A model generated the notes under the pieces. The model did no database searches. It was not told where the DNA came from and worked only from the letters and a program-made list of their open reading frames with translations. A DNA stretch of 64,000 bases from an archaeon (GTDB lineage: Archaea; Asgardarchaeota; Thorarchaeia; Thorarchaeales; Thorarchaeaceae). The stretch covers positions 156,535-220,534 of the forward strand of contig JAJRWI010000010.1 of NCBI GenBank assembly GCA_024276825.1, in the 5' to 3' direction. The first letter of the stretch is position 1. Each line of letters opens with the position of its first letter. Shown one piece after another: positions 13,637-20,095 of the stretch. The translations under genes were made by a program, and so were the position numbers.

Positions 13637-13711
13637 GGCCCGAGTGGGGTAGTGGCAACCTTGGAGACTGTGGATCTCTAGCGGCGGGTTCGATTCCCGC
13701 CTCGGGCCCCA
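13637..13711 (+). tRNA. tRNA-His(GTG) with encoded G-1 and CCA
   Basis: Acceptor GCCCGAG/CTCGGGC, anticodon arm GGAGA-CTGTGGA-TCTCT, T arm GCGGG-TTCGATT-CCCGC, C73 discriminator plus CCA. Confidence 0.95.
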
Positions 13712-13761
13712 CTTCTATCATCCAGCCGTTCTAAAGTCTAGAATAATATTATTTCTGAGTA

Positions 13762-15594
13762 ATGCAAGTATCGATAATGATGAGCAATGAATCATTCAAT
13801 AGAAATGGGACCACACTAAAAGAGTTGATTCTAAAGAGAGCAATCGTTGCTGCCATCGCTGCTATTGTGGTTATTGCATCAATCAGTATACTTGTTCCAA
13901 GCACGGTGACTCCGCAGATAATTATTGAGAAGGAGAATAATCCAAGCGGTCATGAGGGATTCAATCTGACTTCTAGTTTGAGCAACCACACATCATCTCA
14001 GACTATGTTGAATGACACACCATTTTTGAGCGATGAGTTTTGGACCATAAATGCATATAGCCTATCGTCTGATTGGTCAACATACCAAATCACGCAATTG
14101 GGAGATCATGCAGTCATTGCAATAGAAAATGGGGAGTGCGAATTTACTAGGGAGTTTAGTGTGAATGTAGCTGTCCAAAATACAATAAATCTCACATTAA
14201 AGGGCAAGGTGATCTCAGGCCAGGTCGAGATCTTTGTAAGATTTTATGTATGGTCGTGGTATACTCCTAATTATTATACAGGGAATTATCAATATATAAC
14301 GAAGATAGACGCGGGAGAGAGAATTGACTTCTCATTCTTTAGGGACATTAGCAATTTGAAGACATTATTATCACCAAGATGGATAGCAAGTATAAGCACG
14401 CAAATAGAAATAGTCGCTGAGGAGAGTTGCGTGGCTCAAATAGATTCTGCGATCATTGAAACTACTTCAGAAGAGCCACTAGCGACTTTGACCGTTGATA
14501 TGCAAAACACGGGAATGGAGAGTATATATGACATATCAGGCGTTTCCAATACTTACAACATTCCTGGAATTAACATAACAGACCTGGCCACATCAGAGTG
14601 GTCGGTCATAACACCTATGACTAAGGACTTGAAGGTGTATCTTCCCTCAGGAAACTTTTCTTGCACTGCGGGATTATTCAATTACTCTACCGAAGACACG
14701 CACTTTGAGTTTCTGCTATCTTTAGACTCAAGACTTGATTATCGACTTGTGATTAGAGTTGAAATGATTAGAATTGATTTCAGCATGACACCAGATCTGC
14801 CTCAGATTGGAGTTTCGATTAGATGGTCAGAGGAAGTATTGTATTGTTGGGATGGAGAGATCACACCACCTTATTCGATTAAAATCTTCATTCCCGCAAA
14901 GGCTGGCGAATTGATTGTTTCTATTGTATATCTTAGTAGAATTGATGGAAGGCTTAGTCTAGTAGGCACAAGAGTATCACTCAATGGCACATTAAATCTT
15001 AAAGTATCAGTAAAGGCACCATTCTTTTCATTCCTTGGAGGAGCTGCTACGGCGGGAGATATTGTTCTGATTGCTGTTGGAATTGCCTTGCTAATAATGA
15101 CACTTTCGAGTCTTAATGAGATCACCAGACCTTATGGGTGGGAGGTAGTAATTAAAGATCCAAAGTTCATTCCAATACTGATATTAGGCGCCAGCGCCCT
15201 GTTTCCATGGTTGGTGGAGTCGCATACTGGCAGTAATTTGGGATCACCACCACATGTATTAGTTTCATATTACTATGTGCCATTCTGTGTGAAACTAATA
15301 AAAACACAGAACAGTCTGCTATTTCCATTAATGTATCAATACCTGATAATAGACCTCATCTTCAAAATCATGGTGTTTTGGATACCACTACTCTACGGAT
15401 ATTCACGCATTGGGTTCAGTATGAAAAGCATTTGGAATGATTATCTTTATGCGATAGCAATACCATTCATTCTAGTTATTTTGACTCTATTTGATAATCA
15501 TGGTGGGCAGATTGGGCCAGGATTGGTGCTTGCGGCCATTGCACCTGCTGTGTATGTCGTTCAACGCAAACTATATCGCAAATTGAGAAGATAA
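13762..15594 (+). CDS. hypothetical membrane protein with large extracellular beta-rich region
   Basis: N-terminal TM, several N-x-S/T sequons, about 5 C-terminal TM; AT-rich. Confidence 0.6.
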   Translation: MQVSIMMSNESFNRNGTTLKELILKRAIVAAIAAIVVIASISILVPSTVTPQIIIEKENNPSGHEGFNLTSSLSNHTSSQTMLNDTPFLSDEFWTINAYSLSSDWSTYQITQLGDHAVIAIENGECEFTREFSVNVAVQNTINLTLKGKVISGQVEIFVRFYVWSWYTPNYYTGNYQYITKIDAGERIDFSFFRDISNLKTLLSPRWIASISTQIEIVAEESCVAQIDSAIIETTSEEPLATLTVDMQNTGMESIYDISGVSNTYNIPGINITDLATSEWSVITPMTKDLKVYLPSGNFSCTAGLFNYSTEDTHFEFLLSLDSRLDYRLVIRVEMIRIDFSMTPDLPQIGVSIRWSEEVLYCWDGEITPPYSIKIFIPAKAGELIVSIVYLSRIDGRLSLVGTRVSLNGTLNLKVSVKAPFFSFLGGAATAGDIVLIAVGIALLIMTLSSLNEITRPYGWEVVIKDPKFIPILILGASALFPWLVESHTGSNLGSPPHVLVSYYYVPFCVKLIKTQNSLLFPLMYQYLIIDLIFKIMVFWIPLLYGYSRIGFSMKSIWNDYLYAIAIPFILVILTLFDNHGGQIGPGLVLAAIAPAVYVVQRKLYRKLRR

Positions 15595-15601
15595 TTGGAT
15601 T

Positions 15602-16054
15602 GTGTTGGTAATGATGAAACGGAAGGATGATCTGCCAATTATTTTTAAGCTGGGTGAAACCACTTGGCGAGTCTTACTGGTTATCTTAAGTATTAGGGAA
15701 CCCATTGGTCCTAGGGAGTTGTCAAGGCGGCTGAATTTCAGTAGTCCCAGTGTTGGGCTATATCATTTAGAGAAGTTGAAAGAGGAGGACCTTGTTCACA
15801 AGACCAGAGATGGGGACTATATTATCAACACGAATGCGGACTTTGGGTTTTTGGAGAACTATCTGTTCTATGAACAGGGGGCGTTGCCAAGAATCACGAT
15901 GTATGCTACATTTGTCACATTCTTGATGCTGGCATATGGATTATTCATCCCCTTTGATTTTAGTGCTCATAATATCTTTGCGCTTGTTGTGGGATGGTCA
16001 GCGGCCACATTCTTCTGGAGAGAGTTCATTAGGTATTATCGGACATTGAAATGA
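15602..16054 (+). CDS. membrane-anchored wHTH regulator
   Basis: IGPRELSRRLNFSSPSVGLYHLEKL followed by two TM helices. Confidence 0.72.
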   Translation: MLVMMKRKDDLPIIFKLGETTWRVLLVILSIREPIGPRELSRRLNFSSPSVGLYHLEKLKEEDLVHKTRDGDYIINTNADFGFLENYLFYEQGALPRITMYATFVTFLMLAYGLFIPFDFSAHNIFALVVGWSAATFFWREFIRYYRTLK

Positions 16055-16121
16055 AGTAGAGGTCAGGTTCATAATTGATTTAAACAATGCAAGGATTATC
16101 TTCTTGATCATGACAGGAAAT

Positions 16122-16264
16122 ATGCATGCTGCATTGTTTTATGATATTGGTGATGTGAGATATGAGGTGACTAATGTTCCCGAGATTGGTGATGGAGAGA
16201 TATTGATCAAGGTTGGTACTGCACTTACATGTGGAACGGACGTTAAAACATACAGGAAGGGGCA
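16122..16264 (+). pseudogene. 5' fragment of a zinc-dependent alcohol dehydrogenase, cut by an IS607-derived element
   Basis: MHAALFYDIGDVRYE...GTALTCGTDVKTYRKGH matches the N-terminus of the intact gene at 20413-21475 and ends exactly at the element end (16265). Confidence 0.88.
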
Positions 16265-16473
16265 CCGTTCATTGTTAGTTGGACATTCTTGGACACTATT
16301 GTCCTGTCCTTCCAAGAACGGTACTGGAATATTTCTCGTGATTGTGTCCTCAATCGAGCTATTTAAGCTCCCACATTTTTCGAGTGGTATCGTCAAATAA
16401 ATATTTAAACAGTGTCCAACTTTTCTATGTGTGCAATTTATGCCACAAGAGGATGTCTTCAAGGGAGGAGGAC

Positions 16474-17754
16474 TCATGTGTTGGTCTTCAATAGTCCTTT
16501 GACTATTCCAATGAACTCCTCCGTTCCAATCTCTCTCTTTATCCTCTTGAGCCTTCTCAATTCTCTCCTGTACCTCTCCTCTTTTCTCTTGCTCATCTCT
16601 CTGTTGTATGCATCCCTAAACACTGTCTTGTCCCTCAACATCCTCCACACCACCACCATCAGTCTTCTGGCCAAGGCTATGGTCGCCACATGATGATTAC
16701 GCCTCATCTTGAGTCTCTTGTGATACTCCCTCAACTCCCATGGACCAATCTGAGCACACTTCTGCGCCACTAGATACATCACAGTCCTGACATGTCTGTT
16801 ACTAGTCTTCACTATTCCCCCTGCCTTACTCACAGGACCCGACTGATATGTCCTTGGGACCAACCCCAGATATGAACACATCTTCTCAGGACTGTCAAAT
16901 CGCCCCACCCCCCCAATCTCTGCCTTCACCACCGCAGCACTGGTCAGGGCCATACCAGGTATTGTGACCAACAACTCGATGTCCCTGTCACCATTCTCAT
17001 CCCTCATCTGTTCCACCAACCCAGCTATGGCAGCATCAAACATCCTCACCCGTTCCTCTAACACCTCCATGTTCCGCAACAGGTCCATGATGATCAACCT
17101 CTGGACCTCTGACACTGACCCGAAGACCCTCTTCTGCTCCCAGGTCAACCCGGTGTGGTCCCCCCTCAGAGCTCTGAGAAGTGCCAGACGCGCAGCCTTA
17201 CCAAAGGTGTCACAGAGTCCAAGGTCCACCAGTACCGTGTCAAGAACACTGTGACACCGGTTCTTTGTCCTGGCAAGGTCTCTCACCAGTCTGGCACGCA
17301 TCCTTGTGGCATCCCTCAGGTCCTTGATGACCCCCTTAGGAACATAGGAAGGTCTGACAAACCCGGCCCTCAGCAGAACTGCCAACCAGACACTGTCCCT
17401 CATGTCGGTCTTGTGCCCTGCCACATTCTTGACCTGTCTGGAGTTTGCCAGGACAATCTTGACCCCTGCCCTCTCAACAGCTGTGAACACTGCACACCAG
17501 TAGACTCCTGTGGACTCGACCACTGCCGTGGAGACCCCGATGTCTCTCATCCATCCGGTCAGTTGAATGAACCCCTTCCAGGAGTTGGAGAATGTCCTGT
17601 GTTCAACATGTTCTCCCATCACAAGACCCAGATCGGATGCCTGCCCTGGTAGATACTGTCTGTCGTGTTCATCAAGTTCCCCAATAGCAGCACAGACCAG
17701 AGTCTTCTTGCTCACATCGATTCCGCAATATTTTAGTGGTCTCATTACACTCAT
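16474..17754 (-). CDS. IS110 DEDD recombinase/transposase, apparently intact
   Basis: GIDVSK, VESTG, KTDMRDS (DEDD); TIPGM...AEIG...RF...GLVP..YQSG (catalytic Ser), VALARR-like IALARR; start likely MSVMRP after GAGGG. Confidence 0.95.
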   Translation of the reverse strand: MSVMRPLKYCGIDVSKKTLVCAAIGELDEHDRQYLPGQASDLGLVMGEHVEHRTFSNSWKGFIQLTGWMRDIGVSTAVVESTGVYWCAVFTAVERAGVKIVLANSRQVKNVAGHKTDMRDSVWLAVLLRAGFVRPSYVPKGVIKDLRDATRMRARLVRDLARTKNRCHSVLDTVLVDLGLCDTFGKAARLALLRALRGDHTGLTWEQKRVFGSVSEVQRLIIMDLLRNMEVLEERVRMFDAAIAGLVEQMRDENGDRDIELLVTIPGMALTSAAVVKAEIGGVGRFDSPEKMCSYLGLVPRTYQSGPVSKAGGIVKTSNRHVRTVMYLVAQKCAQIGPWELREYHKRLKMRRNHHVATIALARRLMVVVWRMLRDKTVFRDAYNREMSKRKEERYRRELRRLKRIKREIGTEEFIGIVKGLLKTNT

Positions 17755-17774
17755 AACAACGACCCTCAGTTCTT

Positions 17775-17915
17775 CTGGGACTGTGGACGACCGGGAGTGA
17801 CAATTTTCAATACGTGCTCGTGGCACAAGGAGATCACTTCGTCTGGTCGTCCAGGGTCATTTTGTCCACCGTCATCCCGGTGACACTGTTGGGCCCGACC
17901 CATCTAGTCCCTGTG
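17775..17915 (-). ncRNA. putative IS110 bridge RNA (target-binding and donor-binding loops)
   Basis: Non-coding leader; outer stem GGGACT/AGTCCC encloses two stem-internal loop-hairpin modules (GGGTC/GACCC and GGACGACC/GGTCGTCC) whose loop strands match the target and the donor junction. Confidence 0.75.
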
Positions 17916-17976
17916 CGGAGAGTTCTCATTGCACACTCATATCTTTTGTCTAGGTTCTACGCATCTACGCGCAACC

Positions 17977-18223
17977 CATACTCCACCACTTTTACAGCCG
18001 GCACATTCTCCGTAATAGTCCGAACCGCTGTGTTCACAGCACTGTCATGATGCATCACAACCACCACATCCGAGACCACCGGTGTGGAAAACGGCATGAC
18101 CCACAACGGTGACAGCACGGCAACCACAAGCAGGGCACACTTGATTTTCAAAAGGAAAAGGTTACGATGACGACCGACTGACAAAACTTCTTTCATGCAC
18201 TCGATAGTCATTATTTTCTCCAT
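17977..18223 (-). pseudogene. 5' fragment of a paralog of 19058-20095, cut by the IS607-derived element
   Basis: LSPLWVMP...VVVMHHDSAVNTAVRTI...PAVKVVEYG aligns to the intact paralog and stops at the TAT-GGG junction. Confidence 0.85.
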
Positions 18224-18609
18224 CTCTTCCCCTAAAGATTGCCAACTCTGAATAATAAGGGGAGCAAATGTAAATAAAATTTCTGAAGAATTTAACTCTG
18301 AGAAAAAGGCGAGTCTGTGTACACAATAAAAAAGGGAGACGAGAAGACCCTATTATGAAAAGAGAGAGGAGAGTTTCTCGGATGTTCCGATCTAGTTCCA
18401 TTCAAGCACTTGTATATTCCACTAACTAACCCCATCTCGCTCATGAGAGTTCCCTCCTTTGACTACTTGGCTCATAAAATGTATATGAAATTTCCAGAAA
18501 TTTTCTCATTTTGAGTGTGAAAGGACCCAAGAAAACATTGTTACACGCCAGAGCTAATTCGTAAAGGAACAATCACCAAGATGACAGCCATTGATGCGAT
18601 CGTGAACTG

Positions 18610-19023
18610 CTAGTTCAGATGAAAGTAAGGCCAAGCCTCAAGATAAGTGCAGCTAGTAGCTATCAAGGTAAGTAATACAAAGATGATAACGATAAGCCAA
18701 GGTGGCATAGAAACCCGTGGGGAGAAAGCAATCAGAATTGTGACAATTATCATAATGACTTCTAATAGAACAAACTGTGCAATGCTGATTCGTAGAGATC
18801 TCTGTCGTATTTTTGCAATAGCCAGATAGAGAAGTCCATCTTCGGTAGTAGAGATCCAATTTGCACGAACAAGTGATCTAATAGAGCGTTCACTCAGAGT
18901 ACTCTGTTCAACAAGCGTGGAAAGCGGAACAGCTGAATCGGGGCTTGTAGCTCCGAGATTCACCAAGTGCCTTAATGCGGGGTTCCTCACCCGACGATTG
19001 AAGAAGAGTCCTGCACTGCTCAC
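18610..19023 (-). CDS. small membrane protein (wHTH-like N-terminus plus 2 TM), candidate partner/immunity protein
   Basis: GTG at 19023 after a GGTGA RBS; two C-terminal TM helices; directly downstream of 19058-20095. Confidence 0.5.
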   Translation of the reverse strand: MSSAGLFFNRRVRNPALRHLVNLGATSPDSAVPLSTLVEQSTLSERSIRSLVRANWISTTEDGLLYLAIAKIRQRSLRISIAQFVLLEVIMIIVTILIAFSPRVSMPPWLIVIIFVLLTLIATSCTYLEAWPYFHLN

Positions 19024-19057
19024 AAGTATCACCAGTTCATCCGAAGAATGTAGTTGC

Positions 19058-20095
19058 CTAATCATCAGGATCGGTGAGATCGCTCAGTATCCCAAGTAGC
19101 AACACTGCAACTGTAAGTGCTAGCGCAATATTAGAAATCAAAGTTACCCATGGTGTAGATGCACAAATCCCTAATACACCTACTTTCCACAGATCGTACC
19201 ATGCTACCGAGACAATGATATAGTATATGAGAGTAGGAACTAGTGGAACCAATGATGCTATGAATGCAAGTAGGGAAACTCCCCCGTATAACCAGCCGAT
19301 ACACATCACAACGATATTCAAAAGAATAGCAAAATATCCTACAGCCAACATTGCTCCTATATCTCTCACGGTCTCCTTTTCCAATGCCCAGCCCATTCCA
19401 TAACCTGCAAGTAGCGAAACTACAAGGAAAGTGACACCTACACATGCCCAGAATAGCTCGTTTGGACCGAGCTGCCCAACGATATATCCGAGGAGCATTG
19501 GAGGTTTATCTTCCCCACCAAGTAGAGCAACCACCTGTTCATACATCATTGTAAGAACATTCTCGCTGGGTGCAAGCAGGTACGTAACGAATAGACCACC
19601 CAATGTCGCATCTACAACGCCAGTAAATCCAATAACCAATCGATCATCAACATATTGATTAATCTCAGCTGAGTTGCATGCCAGCACGATATCCTTTCCC
19701 GGAGTCATCTCTATTCTGCTACTGAATGCCTTCCACGAGAGCACATGTGACTGAGCAAGAATACTGTCCTCTGAGCCATGGGACACCCACACCACTCTGC
19801 CGACCACCCGGTGCAGGGTCAGCGCATACTCCAGAGACCCATAGTCCACCACTCGCACAGCAGGATCATTCGCCACGATCGTCCTGACCGCAGTGCTCAC
19901 TACACTATCATGATGCATGACCACAACAGTATCTGCAACGACAGGGCTTGACAGTGGTATGACCCAGAGAGGTGACAACATCACGATCATCAGCAGGGCT
20001 GTTTCAAGTCTCAAAAGATTGCAATGCCGACCGACCGACGGACCTAGTCTCACTCGTGCACGCACTGCACAATCAACTATCCCTCCTTCACTCAT
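19058..20095 (-). CDS. exported protein with caspase/CHAT-like His-Cys domain and hydrophobic multi-helix C-terminus
   Basis: Signal/TM, VVWVSHGS ... DIVLACNS ... VIGFTGVVD, then about 140 aa of 4-5 hydrophobic helices. Confidence 0.55.
   Translation of the reverse strand: MSEGGIVDCAVRARVRLGPSVGRHCNLLRLETALLMIVMLSPLWVIPLSSPVVADTVVVMHHDSVVSTAVRTIVANDPAVRVVDYGSLEYALTLHRVVGRVVWVSHGSEDSILAQSHVLSWKAFSSRIEMTPGKDIVLACNSAEINQYVDDRLVIGFTGVVDATLGGLFVTYLLAPSENVLTMMYEQVVALLGGEDKPPMLLGYIVGQLGPNELFWACVGVTFLVVSLLAGYGMGWALEKETVRDIGAMLAVGYFAILLNIVVMCIGWLYGGVSLLAFIASLVPLVPTLIYYIIVSVAWYDLWKVGVLGICASTPWVTLISNIALALTVAVLLLGILSDLTDPDD

Follow-up and report, generated by a model that had tools for sequence, protein, structure and literature searches.

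A very probable bridge RNA in the left end of an archaeal IS110-family element, with a target loop fitting the ends of IS607-family elements

An IS110-family element lies in the window (the whole stretch of 64,000 nucleotides that was analysed), and the question raised by this locus is whether the structured leader ahead of its recombinase gene is a bridge RNA and, if so, what its two loops read. A first-pass annotation, made from the letters alone, had proposed such an RNA with one loop matching an IS607 end motif and the other the element's own circle junction. The analysis described here argues strongly for this reading: positions 17774-17914 of the minus strand very probably encode the bridge RNA of an archaeal IS110-family element, with loop 1 aimed at the ends of IS607-family elements. 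Three lines of evidence speak for a bridge RNA, i.e. both IS110 Pfam domains in the recombinase, matches of the protein to IS621 and ISCro4, and a conserved, covarying fold of the leader. The element was delimited as follows.

16421 to 17947, minus strand: IS110-family element, including an AAAA core copy at each junction (from uninterrupted paralogous host repeats)
17928 to 17936, unstranded: left subterminal inverted repeat, ATTGCACAC on the plus strand (pairs with 16429-16437)
16429 to 16437, unstranded: right subterminal inverted repeat (pairs with 17928-17936)
16474 to 17754, minus strand: recombinase gene, 426 aa, open, catalytic residues apparently intact (from Pfam, homologs and solved structures)

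The junctions were set by comparison with paralogous host repeats lacking the insertion. Searching the same genome with the element and its flanks returned a second, partial copy and many short flank matches; at several places both flanks were contiguous and represented empty sites. Paralogous copies of the host repeat without interruption confirmed the empty site that had been reconstructed in the first-pass annotation. The element proper (GATATGAG...CATAGAAAA) comprises 1523 bp (~1.5 kb), with a left end of 190 nt and a right end of 50 nt. Read in element orientation, the left junction passes from ..TAGACAAAA into GATATGAG.. and the right junction from ..CACATAGAAAA into GTTGGACAC.. The string AAAA(G) was found at each of the two junctions and a single time in the reconstructed empty site, so that the same core is present twice and the crossover may lie anywhere within AAAA(G); relative L034 assigns the G that follows AAAA to the left end. 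Target duplication on insertion was absent when the occupied and the reconstructed sites were compared. The subterminal inverted repeats are 9 nt long and 100% complementary, or 12/13 when one indel is admitted (TATG(A)GTGTGCAAT), and relatives carry repeats of 7-13 bp of the CTATGAGTGCAAT type. The best SSU rRNA model on the genome was archaeal (733 bits), in agreement with the archaeal host named earlier, which is probably a member of the Asgard phylum.

The recombinase was assigned by its Pfam matches (DEDD_Tnp_IS110, 3e-24; Transposase_20, 1.2e-19). Residues D13, E80, D117 and D120 and the serine S305 of GLxPxxxQSG were invariant in six homologs. Matches in the structure database were IS621 (8wt6, E 1e-10) and ISCro4 (E 1e-8), the similarity to IS621 being significant over the C-terminal domain only. 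A single-protein search of the genome contigs found no relatives; alignment-based scans retrieved relatives that were mostly bacterial, with 25-36% identity. A plasmid tblastn for named IS1111 members gave only unnamed "IS110 family" or ISEc45 matches. One relative, L016 (76% at the amino acid level), is a pseudogene with stop codons.

The sequence into which the element has been inserted consists of two parts of one repeat, and a longer element sharing the ends of this repeat was found elsewhere in the window.

17944 to 17977, minus strand: left 34 nt of the host MITE (GGGTTGCGCGTAGATGCGTAGA...GACAAAA), left target half-site (at least four other copies align to the junction)
16265 to 16420, minus strand: rest of the host MITE (GTTGGACAC...ACAATGAACGG), right half-site, TnpB-tail/right-end segment (from other MITE copies)
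10295 to 9728, minus strand: decayed IS607-type parent element (HTH/resolvase ORF, TnpB remnant and both ends)

The interrupted repeat is ~190 bp long and is present in at least 43 copies in the genome. It sits between unrelated genes and therefore behaves as a MITE; positions 16265-16420 align to other copies from the junction onward. Both ends of the MITE are shared with the decayed element at 10295-9728, in which an ORF with a MerR-HTH/resolvase N-terminus is fused to a C-terminal TnpB remnant. The domain matches of this ORF were HTH_17/MerR (3e-10), Resolvase N-terminus (0.0012, weak) and, for the TnpB remnant, the TNB domain (31.2 bits, above the Pfam cut-off). The combination of MerR-HTH/resolvase and TnpB is the architecture of IS607, a family in which the ends have no terminal inverted repeats, so the term "IS607 end motif" had been chosen correctly and, judged from its ends, the host repeat is derived from an IS607-family element. 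The target motif, TGTCCAAC-TTT(T)GTC, occurs at both IS607-family ends in inverted orientation, and the target sequence containing both half-sites reads GGTGGACAAAAGTTGG / GGTGGACAAAAGTTGGAC. The genome offers about 10 near-exact copies of the motif, with no more than one mismatch. Short matches to this A-rich site were common in controls. The proposal that the element is programmed against the repeat of another transposon is thus borne out by the abundance of the MITE and by its IS607-type parent.

A second IS110 copy on contig C36 (L027:1312-1632) is truncated, has 94% identity and occupies the same position in another MITE. Only the left end and ~130 nt of coding sequence are left of it, and at its right junction, where a TTG microhomology is found, it continues into the right part of the MITE. 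Sequence changes in loop 2 and hairpin 2 of its bridge RNA leave the pairing intact (GUGU/ACAU). On contig C13 (L009, 2451-2465), a MITE without its first ~31 nt is broken exactly at the IS110 insertion point, and in front of the break stands ATAGAAAAG, which corresponds to the final 9 nt of the IS110 right end. This break may be the footprint of an IS110-mediated deletion. A third IS110 copy at the C13 site was ruled out, as there is no recombinase gene nearby. Three MITEs hit at one position indicate repeated use of the site, not necessarily recent activity.

The leader itself was then described by its core.

17774 to 17914, minus strand: bridge RNA core with outer stem, target-binding module and putative donor-binding module (from covariance model R1 at 138 bits, MFE, consensus fold and covariation)

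The helices given in the first-pass annotation were all located on the minus strand. The outer stem is formed by GGGACU (17911-17906) with AGUCCC (17782-17777). Module 1 reads GGGUC-GGGCCCAACAGU-GUCA-CCGGGA-UGAC-GGUGGACAAAAU-GACCC (17901-17854), and module 2 reads GGACGACC-..AUCU..-GUGC-CACGA-GCAC-GUAUUGAAAAU..-GGUCGUCC (17852-17785). The MFE fold of 17774-17914 corresponds to the outer stem plus two modules, each made of a stem, an internal loop and a hairpin, with all five helices intact; its z-score was -1.93, and 6 of 200 shuffles were equally stable. Folding of 17755-17945 (191 nt), the range suggested earlier, did not show loop 1 and gave a z-score of -0.89.

Nine further leaders from kin genomes (49-76% protein identity) were used for a consensus fold of 10 homologous leaders, and the same five helices were obtained. 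Across 22 archaeal and bacterial sequences, in an alignment that was fitted to the model, 94.9% of the cells were paired, compared with 64.5% in shuffles and at most 43% in a slid-partner control; compensatory changes were present in 24 of the 26 pairs. Covariance model R1 was built on the homologous leaders and then used on distant relatives. The R1 fold was found adjacent to archaeal and bacterial recombinases with no more than 26-36% identity. It is located upstream of the gene in most of them and downstream in four relatives (L233:1349-1482, L042:2053-2197, L200:1671-1800 and L172:1698-1842; 17-35 bits), hence the RNA has moved between element ends within one clade. A search of 15000-20000 against Rfam at a permissive threshold (E of at most 10) returned no relevant family.

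The strands of the first internal loop were compared with the flanks of the element.

17885 to 17896, minus strand: loop 1, 5' strand, GGGCCCAACAGU (in relatives the reverse complement of core plus right flank, 6-10 nt)
17859 to 17870, minus strand: loop 1, 3' strand, GGUGGACAAAAU (same sense as left flank plus core, TAGACAAAA)

Having the same sense as the left flank and core, the 3' strand would pair with the bottom strand. In every relative with defined junctions, the loop-1 3' strand repeats the left flank up to the core, with matches to the own flank over 7-12 nt, and the 5' strand is the reverse complement of core and right flank. In the window copy, the 3' strand agrees with its own site over 7 nt, or over 9 nt if a G:T wobble is counted (guide UGGACAAAA, site TAGACAAAA); the wobble had been noted correctly before. 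The same strand fits the MITE variant CTTGGACAAAAT on contig C33 in 10 of 10 positions. The 5' strand of the window copy matches its own site over 5 nt only (CCAAC) and ends in CAACAGU, without UU, whereas the strands of relatives end in UU(UU), complementary to an AA core.

The assignment of guides to sites was evaluated by permutation. For the loop-1 3' strand and the left flank, the mean was 8.2 for cognate and 4.6 for non-cognate pairs, a difference reached in 0 of 20,000 permutations; for the reverse complement of the 5' strand and the right flank, the values were 7.1 and 3.6 (1 of 20,000). When each lineage was represented by a single member, the true assignment of guides to sites came out as the unique best of 120. 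The loop strands follow different flanks in five lineages; examples, each as guide / site, are GUUAAAAAAAGU / GTTAAAAAAAGT (L035), GGUGUCCAAAAU / GGTGTCCAAAAG (L024), GACUCUCUCUUU / AAAGAGAGAGAT (L014) and GAGCUAGUUUU / AAAACTAGCCC (L015). Comparison of homologous leaders, the check put forward in the first-pass annotation, thus yielded both a conserved two-loop fold and covariation of the loop strands with the insertion site of each relative, and the claim that loop 1 carries target guides held. The overlap between the two guide strands is AA in most relatives and AC in L036, which suggests a dinucleotide core, most likely AA.

Another candidate for the right-hand guide was rejected, namely the 9-nt complementarity between bridge RNA positions 17882-17890 (AACAGUGUC) and flank positions 16408-16416. 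This segment overlaps the conserved stem of hairpin 1, and its match is specific to the MITE copy of the window. The C36 remnant, which has the same guide and a different flank, also argues against it. The complementarity of AACAGUGUC is perfect, concerns DNA 8-16 nt beyond the right junction, and was judged to be due to chance.

The second internal loop was treated in the same way.

17827 to 17844, minus strand: loop 2, 5' strand with AUCU (complementary to AGAT, core/left-end start of the circle junction)
17793 to 17813, minus strand: loop 2, 3' strand, GUAUUGAAAAUUG... (same sense as the right-end tip CAUAGAAAA)

The circle-junction string CATAGAAAAGATATG given earlier follows directly from the two element ends, and the predicted circle junction, i.e. 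the donor, is CATAGAAAAGATATGAG. All relatives have the motif GUAUxGAAA(A/C) in loop 2, and the right-end tip CATAGAAA(A/C) is conserved throughout as well. GAAAC replaces the usual form in loop 2 of L036 and L043, and a right-end tip with GAAAC was seen in L036. A block of 3-4 nt in the loop-2 5' strand varies together with the first bases of the left end in four lineages (AUCU/AGAT, AGAC/GTCT, GCA/TGC and A(A/C)C/GGTT). The matches of the donor loop are short, 4-6 nt plus mismatches. Its permutation test was not significant because the donor ends are nearly invariant, which limits covariation to 3-4 positions, and because the matches are so short. That loop 2 reads the element's own circle junction is plausible from these correspondences.

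The guides of the window copy had been described as reading the target in the opposite orientation to IS621, and this was verified against a real IS621 copy of E. coli, which has AUCGGGCCU in the 5' strand and a left flank ending in ..ATCAGGCCT. The same IS621 guide convention is given by Durrant et al. (2024, PMC11208160). In both loops of the window copy the roles of the strands are swapped relative to IS621. When IS621-type guide polarity was imposed on the relatives, the cognate and non-cognate values were 3.4 vs 3.5 and 2.9 vs 3.45, i.e. there was no signal. Distant archaeal and bacterial relatives share the upstream position and the polarity of the RNA, with a match of 7-10 nt between the 3' strand and the upstream flank at constant distance. 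As far as these relatives go, guide polarity and upstream RNA are accordingly a trait of the clade and not peculiar to the window copy. According to Siddiquee et al. (PMC11187229), the seekRNAs of IS1111-type elements carry the complement of the top strand first, and those of the IS110 type have the opposite order; IS1111 elements have longer subterminal repeats and a non-coding region that is usually, not always, downstream. A 2026 preprint lists 86 bridge-RNA covariance models, many of which deviate from IS621 (10.64898/2026.10.21.760802).

The element was compared with the characterised systems on this basis. It shares with IS621 and ISCro4 (PMC11208160; PDB 8wt6, 9t56) a DEDD recombinase with the same two Pfam domains, an RNA encoded upstream of the gene in a long left end, two internal loops (a target loop followed by a putative donor loop), two guide strands per loop with 3' ends meeting at a shared core, insertion without target duplication, and a repeated element as natural target. 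It differs from IS621 in that the strand with the sense of the left flank is the 3' one and not the 5' one; in the length of the recombinase (426 vs 326 aa); in subterminal inverted repeats of 9-13 bp instead of 2-3 bp, so that it falls outside the IS110 group as defined by repeats that are absent or 2-3 bp long; in the A-rich core (AA vs CT); and in its archaeal host. The long left end and short right end (190 vs 50 nt) are as in the IS110 group (IS621/ISEc21), but the polarity test showed that the guide order is not. Similarity to the IS1111 type (ISEc11, ISPa11, ISKpn4; PMC11187229) is found in the order of guides, the segment complementary to the top strand lying 5' of that complementary to the bottom strand, in subterminal inverted repeats within the range of 7-17 bp, and in targets that are ends of other mobile elements, as with IS4321 and IS5075 and the Tn21 inverted repeats. 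The RNA of the IS1111 type is usually encoded downstream of the gene, here it is upstream, a position for which few exceptions are noted in PMC11187229, and the IS1111 recombinases have 330-350 aa instead of 426. ISEc21 (PMC11187229) likewise has an RNA encoded upstream that guides insertion into another IS family, and its relatives have been retargeted naturally; unlike the window element, it has the IS621-like guide order, and its target is coding sequence (a conserved part of IS3-family transposase genes) and not an end repeat. By sequence, the layout is a mosaic of IS1111-type guide order and repeats, an upstream RNA and a 426-aa recombinase.

A mechanism was derived by homology with IS621, ISEc21 and the IS1111-type systems. 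The RNA would be transcribed with, or just ahead of, the recombinase mRNA and would be bound by the DEDD recombinase. Its first internal loop would read the target, which is the TGTCCAAC-TTT(T)GTC motif that IS607-family elements and their MITEs carry at their ends. The second loop would read the abutted ends of the element itself, its 3' strand matching CAUAGAAAA of the right end and its 5' strand being the complement of AGAU at the left-end start. Recombination would take place at an A-rich core, most likely AA, and the circle would be inserted without target duplication.

Three other explanations were weighed against this reading. The RNA could be a bridge RNA by descent in a copy that is decaying and immobile, so that the agreement with its site would be left over from the past and no longer a working programme. 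One full copy and one truncated remnant (94% identity) are present in the genome, the loop-1 5' strand has lost the complement of the core (UU) and pairs over 5 nt only, and the close relative L016 is a pseudogene. On the other hand, the recombinase ORF is open with all catalytic residues, the five helices are all intact, the 3' guide fits a MITE consensus variant in 10 of 10 positions, and the ~10 near-exact target motifs are still at hand in the genome; decay of this kind is considered unlikely. Alternatively, the functional RNA might come from the opposite strand (plus strand of the window), antisense to the recombinase. The helices are strand-symmetric, and pair types leave the strand undecided (19 G:U vs 12 A:C cells); the first-pass annotation had itself taken the transcribed strand as an assumption. 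An antisense RNA would, however, place the 5' ends of the guides at the core, where IS621 has 3' ends. The characterised systems have their RNA on the strand of the recombinase (PMC11208160, PMC11187229), and the RNA lies directly between junction and start codon. The sense strand is favoured because both guide 3' ends then meet at the core, as in IS621, and because the characterised systems are sense; transcription from the other strand appears very improbable.

The leader might also be an ordinary structured 5' untranslated region, such as a translational regulator, its similarity to the flanks being chance in A-rich sequence. The wider single-sequence fold, no more stable than shuffles (z = -0.89), and the frequency of short matches to the A-rich site in controls are compatible with this. 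Chance similarity is contradicted by loop strands that follow different flanks in five lineages and by the polarity-swapped control, which had no signal; an untranslated region is contradicted by a fold that is kept down to 26-33% protein identity and is sometimes downstream of the gene. This explanation is close to refuted and has the smallest probability of all those considered.

For the bridge RNA reading, some wider interpretations can be formulated. Elements with left-end RNA, IS1111-type polarity and long repeats may constitute a distinct architectural class in archaea and bacteria, and this class could be a transitional state between the IS110 and IS1111 layouts. Within the Asgard phylum, one branch would then be specialised in parasitising IS607/TnpB end motifs, with one RNA-guided transposon homing on a second one, and an archaeal TATA-like promoter is presumably formed at the junction AAAAGATAT. 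Taken jointly, these four statements are put forward as a tentative view, about which doubt outweighs confidence.

The locus is a clean computational example of bridge-RNA guidance in archaea in which target, putative donor and core region can be read. Natural retargeting can be read as well, with five different programmed sites among the relatives. The order of the guides and the position of the RNA emerge as separable traits, which bears on the evolution of the IS110 and IS1111 layouts and concerns pipelines for guide calling built on the IS621 polarity. A 426-aa recombinase of a probable Asgard-phylum archaeon, with target guides of 9-12 nt, is a candidate orthologue for tool builders. The locus represents no new kind of system: the mechanism was described in 2024, and the guide order is published for IS1111-type seekRNAs (PMC11187229) and common to a wide clade including bacteria. 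The interest is mainly for specialists.

Some minor observations were made around the element. The junction AAAAGATATGAG (17936-17947), conserved in relatives as (A)AAAG/xTATGAG, precedes the outer stem by ~30 nt, a spacing that would suit an archaeal TATA-like promoter. Such a putative promoter would exist in the integrated and in the circular form, unlike the bacterial case. Further away, at 13638-15594, a tRNA gene (13638-13708, plus strand) is followed directly by a 610-aa ORF without Pfam match, and this by a 150-aa ORF with weak winged-helix matches; the region may be the edge of an integrated element.
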